A DNA stretch of 64,000 nucleotides from assembly GCA_951801825.1 (NCBI GenBank), contig CATOOF010000001.1:8936-72935 (forward strand), read 5' to 3'. Below are positions 8,755 to 38,897 of the stretch, piece by piece. Both the position numbers and the translations under genes were made by a program. Below the pieces are notes generated by a model. The model was given only the letters and a program-made list of their open reading frames with translations, was not told where the DNA came from and ran no database searches. Each line of letters opens with the position of its first letter. Position 1 is the stretch's first letter. Origin of the DNA: an uncultured Alphaproteobacteria bacterium (GTDB lineage: Bacteria; Pseudomonadota; Alphaproteobacteria; Rs-D84).

Positions 8755-9066
8755 TTACAATTTAATCTTTACGTCAACTCCGGACGCCAAATCCAACTTC
8801 ATCAAAGCATCAACAGTCTGAGGGGTTGGGTTAACAATGTCGATTACCGCCTTATGATTGCGGATTTCGAACTGCTCACGCGACTTTTTGTCCACGTGCG
8901 GCGAACGGTTCACCGTAAATTTCTGAATCAAAGTCGGCAAGCGAACGGGTCCAACGACATCCGCGCCAGTGCGCTTTGCAGTTTTGACAATTTCTTCCAC
9001 AGATTCCATCAAGACCCTGTGGTCAAATGCCGTCAACTTGATGCGAATTTTAGATGCAGGTACCAT
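8755..9066 (-). CDS. rpsJ: 30S ribosomal protein S10 (start taken at internal Met; ORF extends to 9105)
   Basis: [27 protein letters not shown]… matches the S10/NusE family. The 13-aa upstream extension is probably not translated. Confidence 0.88.
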
Positions 9067-18916: not shown

Positions 18917-18942
18917 CCGGGGACGATTGTCCCCGGCTTTAT
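18917..18942. terminator. bidirectional terminator between convergent Cys-rich genes
   Basis: CCGGGGAC-GATT-GTCCCCGG perfect hairpin with flanking A/T runs. Confidence 0.6.
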
Positions 18943-19445
18943 TCCGAATAATAGCATGGCGGCGAAAAGACAAAATCCCCCGACGTGTCTTTCCCAGATA
19001 CAGAATAACACTCTGTTATCTTTTTCGCACCCACGTCGCTGGTTCCTTCTTCATCTAAAGCGCCTACGAAATAAGCATTGCCGGGACATGCCTGACAATT
19101 TTTACCAGACCCGTAAAAACCCGCCTTGCATCTATATTGACAATACGTAACATTACAACGGGTTTCGTACGATGGCAGCCTTACAATACCGTTAGGGGCG
19201 CCCCACTCTGTCAGCCCCTTACATTCGTCATCACATTCCAGGTTTGGTTCAAAACCGCCGCCGCCATCAAAACACAAATCATTGCATCCGGCCGGACATT
19301 TCAAACATGATTCTGCCGTAACAGGCTCATATATGCCGGTTACCTCGTTCTTTTTATAACAGCATTGTACCAGCACCCCACCCAGCGCAACATTTTCCCA
19401 ACATAACGCCGCAACAACCACAACCCCCAGAACTTTCTTGATCAT
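18939..19445 (-). CDS. Secreted cysteine-rich protein, paralog family member B (start at MIKKVL; ORF extends to 19523)
   Basis: Signal peptide MIKKVLGVVVVAALCWENVALG. Module …CKAGFYGSGKNCQACPGNAYF…TECYSVSGKDTSGDFVFSPPC is parallel to member A. Confidence 0.55.
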   Translation of the reverse strand: MIKKVLGVVVVAALCWENVALGGVLVQCCYKKNEVTGIYEPVTAESCLKCPAGCNDLCFDGGGGFEPNLECDDECKGLTEWGAPNGIVRLPSYETRCNVTYCQYRCKAGFYGSGKNCQACPGNAYFVGALDEEGTSDVGAKKITECYSVSGKDTSGDFVFSPPCYYSE

Positions 19446-19585
19446 AAAACCACCGTTTGTTTTCGGCATTTTTTGGGGTTGACATATGGCGAAAATCTTG
19501 GATAAAATTGTATAAAAATACAATATAGGAAAACGGTCCTTTTAAATAGGCACCGTTTTTTTCATTCTAACAGATTGTTTGTGCA

Positions 19586-21368: not shown

Positions 21369-22376
21369 TTATATGTTCAGGCTGTTTATTTCATCAACCA
21401 GGTCATTCATATTTGCACGCAAATCTTCGGGGGCCGATGCCCACACCAGGTGTCGCATCATAAACTTGTGCACATCATCCATGGTCAGGTTTGGAATACC
21501 GGCGGCGGCGGCAACACGATGCCAACTGGCACGCGGATCGGTAAGCTTCATGCGACCACGCACAGAAAACACCCAGTTCCCATCCTGAGGCAAATCTTGT
21601 AACAACACCACCGCGGCATCTGACAATGGACGCGCGCCCCACATGTAATGATTAAAGTCCAAATCGGACCAGCGCATAGAAAACACCTGTGACTTTGGTG
21701 CGAATCCATAAATCAGCATTAAAAACGCGGCACGTAAAACCGGCGACGGCTCGGCATTGATGGCCGCAATCAGCCGAACAATTCCGGATTTAGTAAGCGG
21801 GCGAACGCGCCTGTGCTGAACCACGCGCTCCATTTTGGCGACCGGATTTTCCTTTGCATAGCCAGTCTCGATGGCATATTTAAAAATACTCTGGACCAGT
21901 TCCTGCATACGTCGTGCAATTGCCGGCCCGGGAATATTTTCAATCACGGCACAAACGTCATCATACGATATATCCGAAACATATTTATCCCGCAACCCGA
22001 CCAAATGCCGCTCAATACCGCGACGCAACTTTACCATTCCGTCTTCACTGCGACGAACGCGTGCCGCCAGATACATATCCGTCAGCCGTCCCATCGTTAT
22101 TTTACTGCGGCGCACCTTTGGTTTTTCTGCGGCACGCATTAATACCTCTGATACGCGACCGCGGGCCTGCTCAATATCCACATCAGGATAATTGCCAATA
22201 ATGATGCGCCGGTCATGCCCGCCTATTCTTTTTCGAACAAAAAAAGTTTTTATGCCGCGACTGGTAACATACATCCGCAACCGTGGTTCCGATATATCCT
22301 GGACAACATCGAACCCCTTGTTCGGCGCCGGCAGATTATCCAGGATATAAGGGTTAAAGAAGAATTGATGCGCCAC
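21369..22376 (-). CDS. Tyrosine-recombinase (P4-type integrase)-like protein, probably degenerate
   Basis: N-terminus …NLPAPNKGFDVVQDISEPRLRMYVTSRGIKTFFVRKRIGGHDRRIIIGNYPDVDIEQARGRV… matches the arm-binding DUF4102 domain of P4-like integrases. The C-terminal region lacks a recognisable HxxR…Y catalytic box, and at 335 aa it is shorter than typical family members. Confidence 0.5.
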   Translation of the reverse strand: MAHQFFFNPYILDNLPAPNKGFDVVQDISEPRLRMYVTSRGIKTFFVRKRIGGHDRRIIIGNYPDVDIEQARGRVSEVLMRAAEKPKVRRSKITMGRLTDMYLAARVRRSEDGMVKLRRGIERHLVGLRDKYVSDISYDDVCAVIENIPGPAIARRMQELVQSIFKYAIETGYAKENPVAKMERVVQHRRVRPLTKSGIVRLIAAINAEPSPVLRAAFLMLIYGFAPKSQVFSMRWSDLDFNHYMWGARPLSDAAVVLLQDLPQDGNWVFSVRGRMKLTDPRASWHRVAAAAGIPNLTMDDVHKFMMRHLVWASAPEDLRANMNDLVDEINSLNI

Positions 22377-26321: not shown

Positions 26322-27560
26322 TTATTCAACCCATATGGTCGCGGTTGCAGTACCCGTGGTTCCCACCGGAATAACCCCCAGTTTTGCCACACCAATCGCA
26401 TCACGTGTTGCAGATACACCCGATACATTCACAGATGTACCACTTACCGTGGCCGATACACCATTTGAACCGCTGGCCGTATACGTTGTATTATTATCAG
26501 TTAACTCGATTGTTGCGGCGGTGGCCTGGTTCGCCGTAAAAGTACCCTTAACAGCCCCCCCCTGTTTAATAGTAAGCGTGGCGTTATTTACCGTCGGAAC
26601 ATTTATCGTTCCCTTTGTGACGGAAATTTTACCGTCTGTCTGGCTAACATTCGTAACGACATTACCCGTCGCGCTAGACTCTGCAACATCCAGTGCATTT
26701 ATCGCATTTGTAATATCACCCGGGGTCGCCGCGGTAACACCCTTTGTAACTGTAAGCGCACCGTTATTTGCCGTAATTGCCGAAACAACGTTTCCGGCAC
26801 CGGTTGTTGTCGCCGTTGTAACTGTATTTGTATCTGTTCCAGATACTGTTATAACCCCAGATGCATCCTTGGTCACAGTAACACTGCCGGAACCTTTAAT
26901 ATTACCATTACTGCCCGCGGTCAATGTATCCTGCTTGCCCGTGGCATAATTATTGTATTGGGTTACTTTGTCCGCCGTAATACCGGAATTAAGAGCGGCC
27001 TGCTGAGCAGAACTCATCGTGGTCCATGCACCATTGGGACCACCCATCTGGTAATTTGCAGTGGATTTAACCTGATACACATTCTTGGCGGCCGCAACGG
27101 CGGCATCCCCCATTGCGGCGGCAATTTCCTCTGCCACCTTTACAGAAGGAATACGCGCATCATTGTCTGTATGCAGGGTGTCATATGTATTAATCGTATC
27201 TATGTTAATCTTTGTCGGGGCAATTGCGGCAGATGCAGAAATATCCGCATTTACAATCGTGCCATCTGCTATATCCCCAGATGTCACAGAACTTTTACCC
27301 GCCAATGTACCTAATGCCGGCTTGTTCTTTATCTGTCCCATGCCGGATGTTGCGTTCCAGTCGGGCTGAACCTGTGCCGCTGGAATATCTGGCTTGTTCG
27401 TCAAATCATTATAAGAGCCAGACGTCGCCACCGGTGCCAAGTTACCTTCTGTGCCCAAACGTTTGTTTAACAGCGTGGTTGATACAACCTCTGCACGGGC
27501 CGGTATCACAGACACAATTGCGATAAAAGAAACTGCAAAAATACCAGCTATATTCCTCAT
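26322..27560 (-). CDS. Secreted surface-fibre protein with phage-tail-fibre-type repeats
   Basis: Signal peptide, then …SGSYNDLTNKPDIPAAQVQPDWNATSGMGQIKNKP… Thr/Gly/Ala-rich beta-rich body. Shares the …NDARIPSVKVAEEIA… motif with the neighbouring gene. Confidence 0.55.
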   Translation of the reverse strand: MRNIAGIFAVSFIAIVSVIPARAEVVSTTLLNKRLGTEGNLAPVATSGSYNDLTNKPDIPAAQVQPDWNATSGMGQIKNKPALGTLAGKSSVTSGDIADGTIVNADISASAAIAPTKINIDTINTYDTLHTDNDARIPSVKVAEEIAAAMGDAAVAAAKNVYQVKSTANYQMGGPNGAWTTMSSAQQAALNSGITADKVTQYNNYATGKQDTLTAGSNGNIKGSGSVTVTKDASGVITVSGTDTNTVTTATTTGAGNVVSAITANNGALTVTKGVTAATPGDITNAINALDVAESSATGNVVTNVSQTDGKISVTKGTINVPTVNNATLTIKQGGAVKGTFTANQATAATIELTDNNTTYTASGSNGVSATVSGTSVNVSGVSATRDAIGVAKLGVIPVGTTGTATATIWVE

Positions 27561-27672: not shown

Positions 27673-28914
27673 TTAACGTCCAATCGTTTCCCAAACATAT
27701 GCGCCGTTGCGGAACAATAACGCACAGCCCGCTTCAGAAGTTTCACAATTCGTACCGGGTTTTGGAATTGCATTATTTGCCTTGGCCAGTGCGCTGTCCG
27801 CCGTATCCTGGGCATCTGACGCCGCAGTATTTGCCTGGGTGGCCGCGGCTTGCGCCGTGGTGGCCTTGCCGCCTACTTCCTTTATCGCGGCGACAACGGT
27901 TGTCGCGGTTGTTCCCATATTTGTCGCAGAAACATCTCCAACCTCTGCATCATAGGTTGCGGTTGGTAACTTAGTTCCCAGTCCAGATGTTGTGCTTTCA
28001 ATCGCCGTCTTGTTTGCATTCGCCGTTGCGGCCGCGGCCTGGACCGCCGCATCATTTGATGTTTTATATGTGTCTAAGGCCGCCGCGGCATCGGTTCCCG
28101 CCTTTTTGGCCGTAGCCACCGCCGCATCTGTCTCTGTTTTTGTATATGCGTCACCAATATTATAGCCCGCCAATGTAGTGGCTTTATCCGCCTTGCCTTC
28201 AACCGCGGTGTTTATTGCATCAACCGCAACCTTAATTTTATTATCAACACTGCCATCAACAGTATCTGCCGCATTCAAGGTTGCAATCGCATCGGTGTTT
28301 GTCTTGATTGCATCAATTTTTTCCTTTGTTGCACCAGAGACCATAACCGCACTGTTATTAATGGCAGTAATCGCGGACGTATTTTCTGCAATGTCCGCCT
28401 TTAGTTCTGTATCATCATATGTCGCGGCTGTTTTTGCATCATCAATTAACTCAACAACCGTCTTGTCTGCGGGTACGGTACCGATTGTCTTATTAATTGC
28501 ATTATCTGCCGCGGTACGCGCCGCTATCTCGTCATCAATTCTTGTGCCCAATGCGGTATCCGCAGATGTACGTGCCGCTGATTCTGCATCCATCTCTGCC
28601 TTGGTAAGACCTTTGTTACTGGCCGTCAATGGCGTAACAAAATCTTCCTTTTTTCTTGAATAGATATTTGCAGCCGCCGTTACCGCCGCATCAGCCGATG
28701 CACTGGCAATGTCTTCGGCAACTTTTACTGTTGGAATACGTTCATCATTATCAGCATTGCTGGTATTATAAGAAGACATGTTGTCAATTTTCAACGTATC
28801 CTGTTTTGTTTTGGCAATATCATCAACATACGTTGTTGATGCAATATCCGCACGTGCCGCACCAACCGCCAAAAACGCCGCCAGAGAAGCTACCAAAAAT
28901 CCTGCTCTTTTCAT
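27673..28914 (-). CDS. Secreted Ala/Thr-rich coiled-coil surface protein (paralog)
   Basis: Signal peptide MKRAGFLVASLAAFLAVGAARA, then DIASTTYVDDIA…, then …NDERIPTVKVAEDIA…; a long coiled-coil; C-terminal IPKPGTNCETSEAGCALLFRNGAYVWETIGR. Confidence 0.55.
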   Translation of the reverse strand: MKRAGFLVASLAAFLAVGAARADIASTTYVDDIAKTKQDTLKIDNMSSYNTSNADNDERIPTVKVAEDIASASADAAVTAAANIYSRKKEDFVTPLTASNKGLTKAEMDAESAARTSADTALGTRIDDEIAARTAADNAINKTIGTVPADKTVVELIDDAKTAATYDDTELKADIAENTSAITAINNSAVMVSGATKEKIDAIKTNTDAIATLNAADTVDGSVDNKIKVAVDAINTAVEGKADKATTLAGYNIGDAYTKTETDAAVATAKKAGTDAAAALDTYKTSNDAAVQAAAATANANKTAIESTTSGLGTKLPTATYDAEVGDVSATNMGTTATTVVAAIKEVGGKATTAQAAATQANTAASDAQDTADSALAKANNAIPKPGTNCETSEAGCALLFRNGAYVWETIGR

Positions 28915-29015: not shown

Positions 29016-29831
29016 TTAAACGCCCGGCGTCGGTGCTGGTGCTGGGTCTGCACGTTCAATTTGTTCCCATTTCAAGGTCGCAACATCGCCAAGGGTCTTG
29101 ATGGTTAAAACATATGTTCCATCTTCGCCTGTTGTCGTAACCTTTTTAATGGATTCGTTCAGCGCCTGTGTCGCATCAGCCTGGGCTTTTTCAACCGCCG
29201 TGTTCAATGCGGTATCTGCCGCTTTATACGCAGTGTCCAATGCACCAATCGCATCAGCGTTAGCTTTTTCTGCTGCTGTTGCACGGTCCGTTTCAACCTT
29301 TACCGCGTTGGCAATATCTGTTGCAACCTGTGTTTTATCCGCCTTGTCAGAAACAGCTGTATCAATAGCGTCTTTGATTGCACCCTCTTCCGCAGTAATA
29401 GAGTTTGTAATAATTGTTTTAACCTGGTCCTGTGTTACTTTGCTAGTATTCAATTCATTGATTGCCTCGGTCAGTGTTTTATTCGTTGTCCCCAGTTCGG
29501 CTGTTCCAACCGTCCCCTCCAACGCACTAATATCATCCTCGGCCGTATATAAGCGCGCATCAATATCCTTTAAATCCGCCGCCGAAGCCTTGGAATCCAA
29601 TGCCTTGGATATTTCCGATGTATCGCTGTTCAGTTCTTCTGTAATCCGATTGGTAATTGTTGTGTTAATACCGTCGCGAAATTCCGTAACAGTTGATTCC
29701 AACGTTGTGACGCTACCCTGTACTTTGCCAATTTCTTGATCAACATAGGCCCTGGATGTAACGGCCGCATTTGCATCGACTGCAACCAAGCCCAACAGAA
29801 CTGTAAAAATACCAGTTGTAAGTTTTTTCAT
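29016..29831 (-). CDS. Secreted coiled-coil surface protein (paralog)
   Basis: Signal peptide; N-terminal AAVTSRAYVDQEI motif; heptad-rich Thr/Ala/Asp body; Pro-rich C-terminus. Confidence 0.5.
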   Translation of the reverse strand: MKKLTTGIFTVLLGLVAVDANAAVTSRAYVDQEIGKVQGSVTTLESTVTEFRDGINTTITNRITEELNSDTSEISKALDSKASAADLKDIDARLYTAEDDISALEGTVGTAELGTTNKTLTEAINELNTSKVTQDQVKTIITNSITAEEGAIKDAIDTAVSDKADKTQVATDIANAVKVETDRATAAEKANADAIGALDTAYKAADTALNTAVEKAQADATQALNESIKKVTTTGEDGTYVLTIKTLGDVATLKWEQIERADPAPAPTPGV

Positions 29832-29868: not shown

Positions 29869-30693
29869 TTAATCTGCCGGAGTAACCGTGCTTTCCAGCG
29901 GCGCCGTAACATCCAGCCACATCAGGCTATTACCGGCTGAATCGACCGACAGAACACAGCGTCCCGACTCTGCGGCACAGGACCCTGTCGGTTTCGGTAT
30001 CGCCAGGTCAATAATTTTAGCGTTTGCTTCTTCCTTTGTATAAACATCGGCTACGTTGGCCTTTTTATCCAGTTCAGTTTTTAACGTGCCAGATTCAACA
30101 GATTTATCAATTGCGTCGGTCACAACATCGCCATTGCTGACAATTGTGGTAATAATTTCTTTTACGGATTCATTTTGTTCCAATGCATTCGTAATCTTTT
30201 CCGTAACGGTTGCATTTGTTACCAAATCCGCCGCCGCCACAGTACCCGCGACATAATTACCGGTTGCATCAATTGTTGCGATATTGCCGGCCTTGATTGC
30301 TTCGCCCGTCAGCTTGTCTGCCTTGCCTGCGACATCCGTTTCCAGTTGTCCAACAGTTGTATTCAAATTATTAACAGTTGTGCTAATCTGGTTTACAGTC
30401 GATGTATCCGCCTTTGTGTCCAGTGCCTGGTCAATGGCTGTTTTCAGTTCACTGTTTTCAGACTGCAGTTCGTTTGTAATATTTGTTACGATAACATCCT
30501 GCAACTGCTCTGTTTTAGTATAATTGTTTTCAATTGTTGTCTGCAGTTCCTTAACATCTGTCGAAACCTTGTTATCAACATATTGTTTGCTTGCGATTTG
30601 AGGCGCCGCCGATGCACTGGCAATCCCAGCACTTACCATTATAGCCGCTGCAAATCCGGAAAAAGCGACATTCTTTACTTTCATTTTTTTCAC
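29869..30693 (-). CDS. Secreted coiled-coil surface protein (paralog)
   Basis: Signal peptide; …QIASKQYVDNKV… motif; DVYTK-type repeats; C-terminal …IPKPTGSCAAESGRCVLSVDSAGNSLMWLDV…. Confidence 0.5.
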   Translation of the reverse strand: MKKMKVKNVAFSGFAAAIMVSAGIASASAAPQIASKQYVDNKVSTDVKELQTTIENNYTKTEQLQDVIVTNITNELQSENSELKTAIDQALDTKADTSTVNQISTTVNNLNTTVGQLETDVAGKADKLTGEAIKAGNIATIDATGNYVAGTVAAADLVTNATVTEKITNALEQNESVKEIITTIVSNGDVVTDAIDKSVESGTLKTELDKKANVADVYTKEEANAKIIDLAIPKPTGSCAAESGRCVLSVDSAGNSLMWLDVTAPLESTVTPAD

Positions 30694-30741
30694 TTCCTTT
30701 TTTTACACTTGGCCCAAGGGCCGTTTATAATGATTTGACAG

Positions 30742-32592
30742 TTACTCTGTAACCACTTCAAACCAGCCCTTTTGACCATTGCTAATCGCCAGTACGAAAT
30801 CACCTTCTTCTGGTGCGCCTTCGACAGTAACCGCCTGGTCCGCCTTTGTCAGCGATGCCTGAACATCCGCCGCCAATTTCGTTTTTGCAATTGCCGCATC
30901 ATCTGCAACATCTGCATTTGTAATTGTGTCTTTTGCCGCCAATGTGCCCAAATCTTCTGTTTTGGCATATCCGCTTAAGTCTATATTGCCGGCCTCTACA
31001 ACCGCATCCTCAAGCGCTTTTTTAGTTGCAAACTTTTCATCAGCCGCTGATTTCGTATAAACATTTTCCGCATCAGCCTTTAACGCCAGCGACGTTGTTG
31101 CCGCATCAGCCGCCGTCTTGGCCGCATCGGCCTTATCGGATGCCGTTCCTGCCGCCGTCAATGCGGACGCCGCCACACCAGATGCCGCATCGGCCGCTGT
31201 TTTTGCGGCCCCGGCTGTTGATACCGCCAACGCCGCATCGGCAACCGCGCCGCTAACATCGACCGCCATTTCATCAACATCAGTCGCCAGTGTATTTACA
31301 CGCCCCTCCAGAGCGGTTACCGTTGCGCCTTTTGCATAATCGGCCAAATCGGTAACATTTGCCTTTTTCTCAAGCGCAGTGTTAACATCAGCCGTTTTGG
31401 CATATTCGGATAAAGCCGCACTCATGTCGCCTGCAACAATATCGGCAACTTTCTCGTCAACCTGGGTCTTTGTGTAAACATCTGCAGATTTTGCATAATC
31501 AGCCAGAGATTGGTGCTCTGTCAGATACTTTGCATCTGACTGGCCCTTTGTGTAAACATCCGAAACATTCGCCTTGTCCGCCAGCGCCGTATTAACCCAT
31601 GCCTTAGGTGCAAGATCCGCAGTTGCGTTTGTAATGCTTTCTTCTACCGCCGTTTTCGTGGCATACGCCGCCAGCTGTGTCTTGTCCGCCTTGTCAGACA
31701 ATGCATTGGCCATTTCGGTCGATGTAACATGCCCCGCATCCGCAATTGCTGTTTTAATCGCCTGATTCATTTGCTCTGTTGTGGAATACTTAGCGGAATC
31801 AAGGCCCTCGCCCGGGTCACCCTTGTCACCCTTTTCACCTTTCTCGCCCGCCGGGCCCTGGGGACCGGTTAAGCCTTGGGGCCCCTGGGGGCCGACCAGC
31901 TCACTAATTGCAATCAAATCCTGCCACTGGGTATCGCCGACATAGCGCCACTGAATATGGGTTGCATTCTTAGAAATCTCAACCTCGCGGCCATTTGCAC
32001 CAACAATGGTTTCCAGCCCGTCTTTCAGCGCATCTATATTCAGGAAAATTTCATCATCTTCTATTTCAATATAGCCATCGCCCGTCAACACATTTTGCTT
32101 GTCTGCAAAAAAACCGTCTATTTCATCATTTGTGTACAAAGCACCAACCTGGGATTCAAGTTCGCCAACACGGTCTGTCAATGCGCCGGCAATTCCTGGA
32201 TCCATGGAACCACCGCCACTGTTGCTAACGCCGCTGCCCGGTTTTTGATTTTTGATAGAACTGCCCCCACTGACAGATGTGCCGCCACCCAAATATTTGC
32301 CAATAGACAAACGTGGCGCGGTTGCAACACGGCCCGTCGTTGCCGTACCGCGATTTGAAGACCCAGACGCAGACGCCCCGCCAGCCGACGGCGCCACGCG
32401 CATTGATCCCGCGCGCACTGCGTTTATGGCCCCACTGGGGGCGCCGCCACCCGCGGCCGCAGATGATGCACTGGAATACGTTCCTGCCCCCCCTAACGAC
32501 CGCACCGACGCGGCCCCAAAAGCGCCCGATATCGCCGATGTGCACAAAACACAAACAACTGCCAATCGTGATATTTGAACTCTGTTTTTCAT
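30742..32592 (-). CDS. Secreted collagen-like-repeat surface-fibre protein (start at MKNRVQ; ORF extends to 32631)
   Basis: Signal peptide; Gly/Ser-rich linker; …IQWRYVGDTQWQDLIAISELVGPQGPQGLTGPQGPAGEKGEKGDKGDPGEG (10 GXY triplets); then about 300 aa of KADKTQL/DVYTK-type repeats. Confidence 0.6.
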   Translation of the reverse strand: MKNRVQISRLAVVCVLCTSAISGAFGAASVRSLGGAGTYSSASSAAAGGGAPSGAINAVRAGSMRVAPSAGGASASGSSNRGTATTGRVATAPRLSIGKYLGGGTSVSGGSSIKNQKPGSGVSNSGGGSMDPGIAGALTDRVGELESQVGALYTNDEIDGFFADKQNVLTGDGYIEIEDDEIFLNIDALKDGLETIVGANGREVEISKNATHIQWRYVGDTQWQDLIAISELVGPQGPQGLTGPQGPAGEKGEKGDKGDPGEGLDSAKYSTTEQMNQAIKTAIADAGHVTSTEMANALSDKADKTQLAAYATKTAVEESITNATADLAPKAWVNTALADKANVSDVYTKGQSDAKYLTEHQSLADYAKSADVYTKTQVDEKVADIVAGDMSAALSEYAKTADVNTALEKKANVTDLADYAKGATVTALEGRVNTLATDVDEMAVDVSGAVADAALAVSTAGAAKTAADAASGVAASALTAAGTASDKADAAKTAADAATTSLALKADAENVYTKSAADEKFATKKALEDAVVEAGNIDLSGYAKTEDLGTLAAKDTITNADVADDAAIAKTKLAADVQASLTKADQAVTVEGAPEEGDFVLAISNGQKGWFEVVTE

Positions 32593-32652
32593 AACTCTCT
32601 CTATACCTGTCAATGATATCAAATTACGCAAACCGCAACAACATTTTTCTGG

Positions 32653-33387
32653 TTAAAATTCATACCTGATACCAAAAGATACCGAATTATCCAAAATCAT
32701 GCCTGTTTTGCTTTTAAAGCCATATACATTGTCATCGGTGTCTTGGAAGCCCAGCTTTAATTCAGCCCCGGTCATACCGGCCAAACGATACCGCAAATCC
32801 AGCACCAGATTTTCATCCAGCTGATGCGTCCACCCCAGCATCAGTCCCGCCATCGGCGACAGTGCCGTTTTAGTCTTGTCATAGCCGTTGAAATAATCAC
32901 CGCTTATCTTATAATTGGACAACGCCGCACCAACACCCGCGCCGACATACAGCCCGTTCGTAAAGTCATAATATCCGTTCAGCATAACATACGGAATCGA
33001 CAGCGAAAATTTTGCAACCGCATCTTCGTCGCTGAAATAGCCCAAATATCCGCCTTCCAGTTCCGCGCGCCAGAAATAGTTAATTTTCTTACCCGCCGCA
33101 ATCGAGCCGCCGAACACAGGCTCAAACGAATATTTATCCTCGCTATGGCTTTCATCCGCGCTGAACCCCTCAGAAACACTGTATTCGTTCTTGAAATTCA
33201 GCAGGCTCAGTTCTGCACGCCCAGTTATATACCAGCCTGTTTTTGCTTTGTCCTTATAATTATATGTAACATCGTATCCACCGCGGCCGTCTCTTGAAAT
33301 ATGACTGGGCTGTGCGGTGCGCACCGCCGCAAAAGACGGCACGACAAATAATCCCATCAAAACACTTACTGACACTAATTTTTTCAT
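32653..33387 (-). CDS. Outer-membrane beta-barrel protein (OmpA-N/Opa-like small barrel)
   Basis: Start at MKKLVSVSVLMGLFVVPSFA signal; alternating beta-strand pattern; C-terminal …VSFGIRYEF. Confidence 0.6.
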   Translation of the reverse strand: MKKLVSVSVLMGLFVVPSFAAVRTAQPSHISRDGRGGYDVTYNYKDKAKTGWYITGRAELSLLNFKNEYSVSEGFSADESHSEDKYSFEPVFGGSIAAGKKINYFWRAELEGGYLGYFSDEDAVAKFSLSIPYVMLNGYYDFTNGLYVGAGVGAALSNYKISGDYFNGYDKTKTALSPMAGLMLGWTHQLDENLVLDLRYRLAGMTGAELKLGFQDTDDNVYGFKSKTGMILDNSVSFGIRYEF

Positions 33388-33524
33388 GAAAATACCCCTC
33401 CATTTATTCCTTAAGTATATCATAAAAAAGGATATGCTCCAACAACAAAAAACAGATATTGACCGTTTTCTCTTTTTCTGCTACGTTTTTAGCATACTAA
33501 TTGTACACGGAAAGAGGTAACAAC

Positions 33525-37939: not shown

Positions 37940-38897
37940 ATGCAAACACAAAACACACCTGATCTGCTGTCATACATCTCGGAATTTTATCGCACGACGG
38001 ACACAAAACTGAACCATATCATACAATCAATAGAGACACTAAAAAAACACGTCACACGCCTTTATGCGCTGCGAACGGACATATCCGACATACCACCGGC
38101 ATCGGGCCATCTACTGTTAAAACAACAGGGATGCCTGAAACTGTTATCAATGATTGACCGGGTGTTAAAAGATGCCGGCATTGAATACTTTCTGGGATAC
38201 GGAACACTGTTGGGTGCGGCCCGCGGCGGCGGATTCATACCATGGGACGACGATATTGACATATGCCTGATGCGTGCAGATTTTGACCGCGCCGTGGACG
38301 TATTAACCCGGCATTTTAATCATGACCTGTTTTCAACCCGCTGGGGGCTAAGTGGCGGAATATTCAAAGTACTGTTCACAAAAAAAAATCTGTGTAGACC
38401 TGTTTCCATGGGATACATATCATACCCGAATGGAAACGGAAGACCAGCGCACAGAATTTGTAAACACATATATTCACGCAATGGATACCGCCCGCCAGAT
38501 GGAGGCAGACCAGCGCATGCTGGCCGAAAATCCCGGGGCGATTGTATCATCCACGCACCAAAATTATTGCCAGATTCGCGACGATATAATCATGAACGAC
38601 ATCGCCCCTGATTACGAGCATGGCGACATATTTGAAGGCATTGACTGGCAGACATTCCCGGAACGCATCGGCAGATTTTTCCATGCCAACCCGTTTCATC
38701 ATGAATGGATTTTCCCGCTGGGCCAGATAGAATTCTGTGGCCACATGTTCCCGGCCCCAAATAATGTAGACGCTGTTCTGACAACACGCTTCGGCGACTG
38801 GGGGACACTGCGTCCCGATTTTGCCCGCCACAACGGCAATCCGTTTTCTTATCAAGAACTGGAATCTGTTCGCAAATTTATCGGTACCGAACAATGA
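37940..38897 (+). CDS. licD: LicD-family phosphotransferase, split over two frames at an A9 tract
   Basis: Frame 1 (from 37940) carries …GTLLGAARGGGFIPWDDDIDICLMR… (LicD DxD motif). Frame 2 (from 38352) carries …KKICVDLFPWD… and the C-terminal half. The frames switch within aaaaaaaaa at 38380-38388. Confidence 0.65.
38380..38388 (+). repeat. homopolymeric A9 tract inside licD (frameshift site)
   Basis: cacaaaaaaaaatc read directly. Confidence 0.9.

Follow-up and report, generated by a model that had tools for sequence, protein, structure and literature searches.

The hyaluronate lyase HylP of Streptococcus pyogenes prophages carries an optional (GXY)10 tract, which is missing from HylP1 and HylP2 (PMC4585773), and EPclA, encoded by a prophage of E. 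coli O157:H7 and built in the order PfN-PCoil-Col-PfC, is a proven trimer in which the coil and the collagen part melt independently (PMC3368898). NadA of Neisseria is a Sec-exported, Gram-negative trimeric adhesin, and Bdellovibrio bacteriovorus possesses MAT (mosaic adhesive trimer) proteins, which by their description are chromosomally encoded, signal-peptide-bearing, phage-fibre-like trimers with several paralogues per genome (PMC10769870). The present analysis concerns a mosaic fibre protein of 616 aa with a collagen-like tract of Gly-X-Y (GXY) triplets. It is encoded at 30742..32592 on the minus strand of a 64,000-nt stretch of DNA (the window) that spans positions 8,936 to 72,935 of contig CATOOF010000001.1, from an uncultured alphaproteobacterium of the Rs-D84 lineage. 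We consider it rather likely that the tract forms a short collagen triple helix and acts as one rigid spacer of a homotrimeric fibre that is exported by the bacterium itself. We further infer that this fibre crosses the outer membrane, is exposed at the surface, is anchored through an outer-membrane barrel and serves adhesion.

The tract, aa 234-263 (GPQGPQGLTGPQGPAGEKGEKGDKGDPGEG), consists of ten unbroken Gly-X-Y triplets encoded from nt 31893 to 31804 of the minus strand (31804..31893), where it is directly readable, as the first-pass annotation had stated; the interval given there, 31805-31898, takes in two codons before the tract, and the sequence IQWRYVGDTQWQDLIAISELV reported to precede it is indeed present. 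No other run of six or more GXY triplets exists in the window in any of its six frames, and mononucleotide shuffling of the window, repeated 100 times, never produced a run longer than five. An interruption on re-sequencing had been named as an outcome that would speak against the tract; it is identical and unbroken in seven independent assemblies of the species (L001-L006 and L092), and hence not an assembly artefact. Over the whole 1851-nt gene, six assemblies show no difference and one shows two, and an identical protein is encoded by at least 24 contigs of metagenome-assembled genomes (MAGs) and public runs.

The GXY register is kept across homologues. The tract comprises at least five triplets in 117 of the 120 best homologues, and in all 117 Gly occupies every third position, with X and Y variable. 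Moreover, the spacing between two invariant points, W223 and the Y.T..M motif (T271), which amounts to 27, 30, 33, 45, 48, 51 or 57 residues, is a multiple of three in 114 of 116 sequences. In the homologue tracts X is mostly Glu, Pro or Asp and Y mostly Lys, Gln, Pro or Ala; the commonest triplets are GEK, GPQ, GDP (ranking third) and GDK, so that Lys-Gly-Glu and Lys-Gly-Asp pairs are frequent. Such pairs reportedly stabilise triple helices devoid of hydroxyproline, a finding that is credited to Persikov et al. in 2005.

The first-pass annotation had also proposed that the strict periodicity makes the tract a hotspot of in-frame expansion and contraction. This is supported in part, for between species: its length changes almost always by whole triplets and extends from zero or one triplet, by way of 3-12, to 18 (L037) and 26 (L041), the latter two differing by one 8-triplet unit, which suggests unit duplication. 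Within this species the proposal finds no support, as judged from 90%-identity clusters and the seven assemblies: all five protein variants of its own cluster have 10 triplets. All 15 variants listed for the sister cluster (61 members, ~40 variable positions) have 6 triplets; in a third cluster one of the six variants has 13 triplets instead of 14, and one variant carries a substitution at a Gly position. A pattern scan of metagenomes with exact flanks and a second with degenerate flanks returned no tract-length variants. At the DNA level the program TRF (Tandem Repeats Finder) detected a 9-nt unit in 2.7 copies within the tract, which, together with the seven identical assemblies, is not the behaviour of a strain-variable locus of the variable-number tandem repeat or contingency type. 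There is accordingly no evidence for a fast switch at the strain level, and the tract would be an evolutionarily length-variable spacer that is selected for register. Tract lengths do vary between strains in Scl and Lcl. Scl1/Scl2, BclA, Legionella Lcl and Burkholderia Bucl resemble the present protein in combining a signal peptide with a hydroxyproline-free, charged GXY tract beside a trimerisation domain and in their varying triplet number, but the Scl tracts are far longer, with 50-79 triplets (PMC8968730) as against ten here that are stable within the species, and the 616-aa protein has neither LPXTG nor another known anchor. When the single sequence was searched against PDB chains, collagen peptides were matched without significance, and no homology to collagen-like surface proteins was found beyond the tract.

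Directly before the tract lies a small beta module (aa 172-233; 31894..32079, minus strand), which is the best-modelled part of the protein in an AlphaFold2 (AF2) monomer model, with a predicted local distance difference test (pLDDT) score of 69-85. Its core, aa 196-233 (..GREVEISKNATHIQWRYVGDTQWQDLIAISELV; nt 31894-32007), is a phage tail-fibre repeat module of ~38 aa, of the form G.E[VI]EL..[ST].THIQWR..G...W..L[IV].L..L, to which the GXY triplets are joined without a gap. When phage genomes were searched by tblastn with aa 164-263 as query, the GXY part of which was masked by the low-complexity filter, 14 records were obtained with 44-65% identity over the module core. The named matches at 52-65%, namely the Pseudomonas phage Epa19 fibre, the Erwinia phage S6 tail fibre and a protein of Clostridium phage phiCp-D, all continue from the module into 3-4 GXY-type triplets. 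With the 44-aa module alone as query, a HMMER search of 1.84 billion representative proteins (E<=1e-3) recovered 2359 clusters, with as many as 16 copies of the module in one protein. In the best 150 of these 2359, at least three GXY triplets occur within 8 residues after 541 of 741 module copies, and 141 of the 150 proteins have one such junction or more. The earlier suggestion that an IQWRY..W..L motif commonly adjoins collagen-like regions in phage fibres is thus borne out by the three phage proteins as well as by the 541 copies. Since a Pfam scan of ten module proteins found Collagen and a phage tail-tip domain and no model for the module, the composite of beta module and GXY triplets is a widespread cassette without a Pfam match in these searches.

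On the C-terminal side of the tract the protein continues as a stalk rich in Ala, Thr, Asp and Lys (aa 264-547; 30952..31803, minus strand). Some 300 aa of Ala/Thr repeats of 14-15 residues had been announced for this region. The composition agrees (~285 aa with 25% Ala, 11% Thr, 10% Asp and 9% Lys), but regular repeats of 14-15 residues are not present: self-similarity is weak (z about 2-3), with peaks at lags 13/26/39 in aa 264-420 and at lags 28, 18, 7 and 14, with 21 also raised, in aa 420-547, and no DNA tandem repeat was found in the stalk region. Rather than as regular repeats, the stalk is best read as a putative alpha/beta coiled coil. AF2 models it as mostly helical, with a long helix at 413-507, and aa 298-547 contain 14 motifs of the beta-layer type (VYTK three times, YATK, FATK, YAK four times and xxKAD/KAN five times), in agreement with the hexad/nonad signature [hydrophobic]-[A/Y/V]-T-K-x-[D/E] or xxKADKAD of alpha/beta coiled coils with beta-layers. 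Beta-layers are triangular elements to which three chains contribute and which interrupt trimeric coiled coils as insertions; motifs such as MATKDD and IENKADKAD form them (Hartmann et al. 2016, PMC4786415), and in the prophage fibre HylP1 (2C3F) they are located at 'KADKETVYTKAES' and 'ATKAYVDKAI' (PMC4786415). Furthermore, the family profile, searched against all PDB chain sequences, matched the stalk of Neisseria NadA (4cjd_A, E=1.1e-6, profile positions 261-358), with ..KADKTEL..KANSADVYTKAEVYTKQESD.. in the alignment, and a set of GCN4-fusion coiled-coil constructs (7oaa, 7oac, 7oah, 7o9v and 5apz, E from 1e-4 upward), among them the crystallised alpha/beta coiled coils 7oaa/7oac (E 1e-4 to 2e-3). 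These matches are visible with the family profile, not with the single sequence. The protein thus has stalk homology to a coiled coil of the trimeric autotransporter adhesin type (NadA) and, by homology only, a trimerisation domain beside the tract. Because Fourier analysis of hydrophobicity in the predicted helices showed no significant periodicity of 3.5 residues, the assignment of a coiled coil rests on homology together with the weak lag-7/14/21/28 signal. From the beta-layer motifs and the profile matches a trimer may be deduced, and from the trimer a triple helix; as read from the sequence, both appear well supported by homology. The trimeric stalk and the cluster of fibres envisaged by the first-pass annotation are backed by the same matches and motifs, and by the five-protein cluster described below.

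Compared with the prophage systems, the protein shares several traits with HylP and HylP1 (PDB 2C3F), which are trimeric fibres with KADK..VYTKAE and ATKAYVD beta-layer motifs (PMC4786415); both the size of the tract, (GXY)10, and its being either present or absent recall HylP. HylP, however, is a virion protein assembled in the cytoplasm and has a triple-stranded beta-helix lyase domain, whereas the 616-aa protein, set against that description, has a signal peptide, a lineage-specific N-terminal module (N-module), no enzymatic domain and a place in the chromosomal core genome. EPclA also combines an Ala-rich, poorly periodic coiled coil with collagen and a small C-terminal trimerising tip, but in the reverse order of coil and collagen, with a Col part of 111 residues as against 30 here, and it is prophage-borne and lacks a signal peptide. 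No Pfam match to the PfN (PF08400) or PfC (PF06820) domains of the EPclA/EPclB type was obtained in the 616-aa protein. The stalk of NadA (PDB 4CJD), homologous at the profile level, displays the same KADKTEL..ADVYTKAEVYTK motifs. To our knowledge, NadA has no collagen tract. In contrast to NadA, the 616-aa protein carries its conserved module at the N-terminal end, and a barrel is encoded separately, by an upstream gene; the C-terminus of the 616-aa protein consists of a helix and a short hairpin and gave no Pfam match to the YadA-like anchor (PF03895) at E<=0.01, so that the protein does not qualify as a type Vc autotransporter.

The layout of the remaining parts was drawn from alignments A1 and A2, the AF2 monomer model and family scans. 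Within the open reading frame (ORF) 30742-32631 of the minus strand (stop codon 30742-30744), an in-frame ATG at 32592 yields the 616 aa; the homologues start at the same Met, M1 being invariant in A1. The N-terminus resembles a signal peptide (aa 1-26, MKNRVQISRLAVVCVLCTSAISGAFG|AAS; 32515..32592, minus strand), as judged from its sequence and its conservation in A1. A lipoprotein N-terminus was ruled out by sequence reading, C14 and C17 both lying outside a canonical lipobox. The family-defining N-module, rich in Gly, Ser and Arg (aa 27-131; 32200..32514, minus strand), is recognised by invariant columns in A1 and A2 with the motifs SVRSLGGxGTY .. RxGSxRV .. GRVAxxPRLSIGxYLGG..SGGSS; it was modelled as disordered (pLDDT ~30). 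On inspection, a reading of this module as an N-terminal transmembrane barrel ('inverted autotransporter') was not adopted, since the module has only two aromatics and no clear alternating hydrophobic strands. A predicted helix (aa 132-168; 32089..32199, minus strand; AF2 pLDDT 52-69) is placed between the N-module and the beta module. The C-terminal tip (aa 548-616; 30745..30951, minus strand), delimited by conservation, a PHROG match and AF2, is composed of a conserved helix, NADVADDAAIAKTKLAADVQ (also NADVADDAAIAKTKLA), and a beta hairpin, FVLAISNGQKGWFEVV, with modelled elements H559-588, E599-604 and E607-612 and the C-terminal sequence ..FEVVTE. Tail-fibre, tail-assembly and minor-tail families of PHROGs match the protein at aa 200-277 and 554-593, the latter segment of the tip corresponding to PHROG 2012 'minor tail protein'.

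The 616-aa gene is the first of five minus-strand genes separated by gaps of 37-112 nt, all products of which have signal-peptide-like N-termini. It is followed by two paralogues of 271 aa, at 29869..30684 and 29016..29831, by one of 413 aa (27673..28914) and by a fifth, most divergent protein of 412 aa (26322..27560) that is rich in Thr, Gly and Val and matches PHROG 17509 on aa 40-147. The five proteins have similar stalk and tip modules (pairwise BLAST, E 1e-22 to 1e-4) and a common C-terminal hairpin motif, ..VL.....G...W.E[IV]; none has an NCBIfam match. Right after their signal peptides, the four neighbours carry a short-neck motif or a variant of it: SKQYVDNKV at the mature N-terminus of the first 271-aa paralogue, which ends in a C-terminal Cys pair and hairpin, SRAYVDQEI in the second, STTYVDDIA in the 413-aa paralogue, and STTLLNKRL. 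The Cys pair precedes the terminal hairpin in both the 413-aa and the 271-aa paralogue (27673-27760 and 29869-29960; PKPGTNCETSEAGCALLFRNGAYVWETI and PKPTGSCAAESGRCVLSVDSAGNSLMWLDV, respectively) and suggests that the tip is stapled by a disulphide, as would suit a location outside the cytoplasm. A scan for promoters and terminators found no more of them than shuffled sequence would give, and none of the terminators on the minus strand lay within the cluster; the hairpin that follows the stop codon of the 616-aa gene (30710-30723) is succeeded on the sense strand by A-rich, not T-rich, sequence.

Upstream of the cluster, at a distance of 60 nt and on the same strand, lies a gene for an outer-membrane beta-barrel with a Pfam match to OMP_b-brl (32653..33423), whose product has 244 aa from the ATG at 33387 and ends in ..RYEF. 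A scan of one genome per species yielded 78 related loci (L011-L088). A homologue of the barrel gene was found directly upstream of the fibre gene and on the same strand in 71 of the 75 of these loci that had enough flank, and the pairing persists where Pal is not adjacent. The RLSIG.Y motif of the N-module is present in 77 of the 78 species loci, and in about half of the 78 species the N-module alone is kept, with different parts downstream. The pair of barrel gene and N-module fibre gene is better conserved than the collagen tract. Their adjacency suggests, without demonstrating it, that the two products form a functional pair, the barrel being for instance an anchor or an assembly partner.

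Nearly all 78 loci stem from MAGs labelled uncultured Alphaproteobacteria, uncultured proteobacterium, 'uncultured Rickettsiales' or Candidatus Enterousia, and their sources are human, chicken and ruminant gut. One locus with barrel gene, Pal, FtsE and fibre gene (L028, CAVGNU010000018.1) is filed under a 'Bacteroides fragilis' bin, probably through an error of binning or labelling. Enterousia belongs to the uncultured order Rs-D84, has genomes of ~0.75-1.0 Mb without flagella, TCA cycle or respiration, and is thought to depend on other organisms, its lifestyle, whether free-living, episymbiotic or host-attached, being unsettled (PMC12306168). Attachment fibres are plausible in such small-genome, metabolically dependent gut bacteria devoid of flagella.

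Among the systems described, the MAT proteins of Bdellovibrio seem to be the closest functional analogue. By their description they have an invariant N-domain after the signal peptide, presumed to bind to the cell surface, followed by variable stalks and tips, an order of parts that the 616-aa protein resembles. The MAT N-domain, however, is beta-rich and has ~130 aa, whereas the N-module here is rich in Gly, Ser and Arg and modelled as disordered. The stalks of MAT are beta-prisms or beta-helices, and collagen goes unmentioned in their description (PMC10769870); the S74 chaperone-protease domain of the MAT S74 subfamily has no Pfam match in the 616-aa protein.

As a working scheme, each chain would cross the inner membrane by means of its signal peptide, and the three chains would be set in register by the trimer-forming parts that flank the tract, namely the phage-type beta module before it and the alpha/beta coiled-coil stalk after it. 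These flanking modules would be needed because ten triplets, and still more so 4-6, are too few to trimerise alone. The GXY tract would then zip up between them to a triple helix of ~8.7 nm (30 residues x ~0.29 nm), stabilised by Pro at X and by the Lys-Gly-Glu and Lys-Gly-Asp pairs instead of hydroxyproline. The N-module would hold the fibre at the cell envelope, possibly via the barrel protein encoded upstream, while the C-terminal tip would point outward and recognise a ligand on another cell, be it host or partner; gain and loss of whole triplets in evolution would alter the reach of the fibre and leave the register undisturbed.

Several observations weigh against such an exported, triple-helical fibre. 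Collagen is the sole match in a Pfam scan of the 616-aa protein, and at 21.6 bits PF01391 stays below its gathering score of 27.2; the same family is annotated on the longer-tract orthologues P0004, P0005 and P0013. Many homologues have 4-6 triplets and some none, so that the tract is dispensable for the core function of the family, and heptad periodicity in the stalk is weak. The AF2 monomer has a mean pLDDT of 55 and a predicted template modelling score (pTM) of 0.29, with a pLDDT of 40-49 over the tract; a fold search with this model against PDB and BFVD returned nothing at E<=0.001, the quality of the model being too low for such a comparison and the fibre too elongated. The first 26 residues are unusually conserved, I7, S8, C14, V15 and C17 being invariant across homologues of ~45% identity, and this segment may be a membrane anchor or a recognition element of a dedicated pathway. 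Finally, neither the protein nor its annotated neighbours include an outer-membrane export device (autotransporter barrel, TpsB, or type I/II system).

The shortness of the tract in most homologues (4-6 triplets) and its absence from others that retain the beta module, together with the low AF2 confidence and the sub-threshold Pfam score, would be expected if the tract were a flexible low-complexity linker that forms no triple helix and owes its Gly periodicity to inheritance of the phage cassette, not to functional need. We regard this as unlikely. A neutral linker would gather Gly substitutions and out-of-register indels, whereas 114 of 116 spacings remain multiples of three and a single interrupted variant was seen (P0142); moreover, the flanks carry motifs known from trimeric coiled coils (PMC4786415). 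Another view starts from the Sec-type signal, which is the only export signal seen, and takes the proteins for periplasmic or envelope-spanning, Lpp-like struts that set or bridge the envelope spacing near the Tol-Pal and FtsEX genes. The neighbourhood of Pal, TolB, FtsEX and OMP genes, the alanine-zipper lipoprotein domain PF11839 of some homologues, a very weak profile match to Lpp (1kfn, E=0.26) and the lack of an export device would be in line with it. The Lpp match is not significant, however, and the predicted length of more than 50 nm (285 aa of coil x ~0.15 nm plus 8.7 nm of collagen) exceeds that of a typical periplasm. Gene number and length also differ strongly between species (271 to 914 aa), as is expected of exposed proteins, and the tip and beta modules are those of phage receptor-binding fibres, all of which makes struts distinctly improbable.

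The kinship with phage fibres raises in turn the question of whether the five genes are remnants of prophage or gene-transfer-agent tail fibres and their products parts of a virion. The PHROG tail-fibre and tail-assembly matches and the phage tblastn matches point in this direction, as do those homologues of the 413-aa neighbour that carry phage tail-fibre domains (PF12571, PF21882 or PF18454; tail-collar and Mtd_N domains are among those found) or bear the name 'phage tail protein', and an integrase-family gene 8 kb away. The last of these, a phage-integrase-family gene at 21369-22376 (minus strand), is situated between the LepA and ACP/FabF genes and has the same position in L009; being syntenic in another species, it seems to be a fixed chromosomal gene and not to mark the boundary of a mobile element. 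Virion fibres fold in the cytoplasm, whereas each of the five proteins begins with a signal-peptide-like segment. The locus is flanked by the barrel gene, Pal, FtsE and FtsX on one side and by DedA, RbfA, an acetyltransferase and LepA on the other, and the other annotated ORFs of the window encode housekeeping functions (EF-G, EF-Tu, ribosomal protein L2, YceG, FabF). No phage structural gene was found among the annotated ORFs of the window, capsid, terminase, baseplate and tail-tube genes included. Synteny extends to at least 71 species, and two more distant ones keep it together with 3-4 unannotated genes behind the collagen-bearing gene. In view of this synteny, the housekeeping surroundings and the lack of phage structural genes among the annotated ORFs, the locus is part of the core genome and not a prophage, and a virion origin of the proteins is very improbable. 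A fibre that the bacterium exports for itself, with the tract as a short triple-helical spacer, thus remains the reading that we favour.

Two further features of the window may be mentioned. A LicD-family gene of the phosphocholine transferase type (37940-38897, plus strand), after which comes a CTP-transferase (LicC-like) gene, is split by a frameshift at a poly-A run (38381-38389). The run is A9 in the window and A8 in L002, where the protein is intact (318 aa), 957 of 958 nt being otherwise identical; the short form also occurs in L001 and the long form in L002, L003 and L005. The split gene is either a candidate phase-variable gene for surface decoration or the result of a homopolymer sequencing error. 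An ORF of 194 aa at 18939-19523 (minus strand), with a hydrophobic N-terminus, many Cys (CCYKK.., CLKCPAGCNDLC..) and no Pfam match, may encode a small secreted Cys-rich protein.

In itself, a short collagen tract is nothing unusual for a tail-fibre-like protein: such tracts are common beside the beta module and have precedents in HylP and EPclA. The protein family is unstudied, but its building plan is a known one. The locus is worth more than the tract, as few other candidate cell-surface structures can be recognised in this uncultured gut lineage with its small genomes. Should the fibres prove external, they would offer a plausible handle on what these bacteria attach to, and a means of enrichment based on antibodies or fibres. 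That the fibre gene is almost always paired with a barrel gene offers an idea of how a trimeric fibre that is not an autotransporter may be held on a Gram-negative surface, a question of anchoring that is likewise open for the MAT proteins of Bdellovibrio (PMC10769870). It is tempting to speculate, though we hold it to be a doubtful possibility, that the barrel, the N-module fibre and the 3-4 further signal-peptide fibres constitute an attachment apparatus of Rs-D84/Enterousia, put together from phage-fibre and autotransporter-stalk modules independently of Bdellovibrio MAT and of type V secretion, in which the N-module (PRLSIGxYLGG) docks to or threads the barrel, a mode of anchoring that would be new, and the length of the collagen tract tunes the reach. 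If this were true, these bacteria would cling to host or partner cells by barrel-linked fibres.

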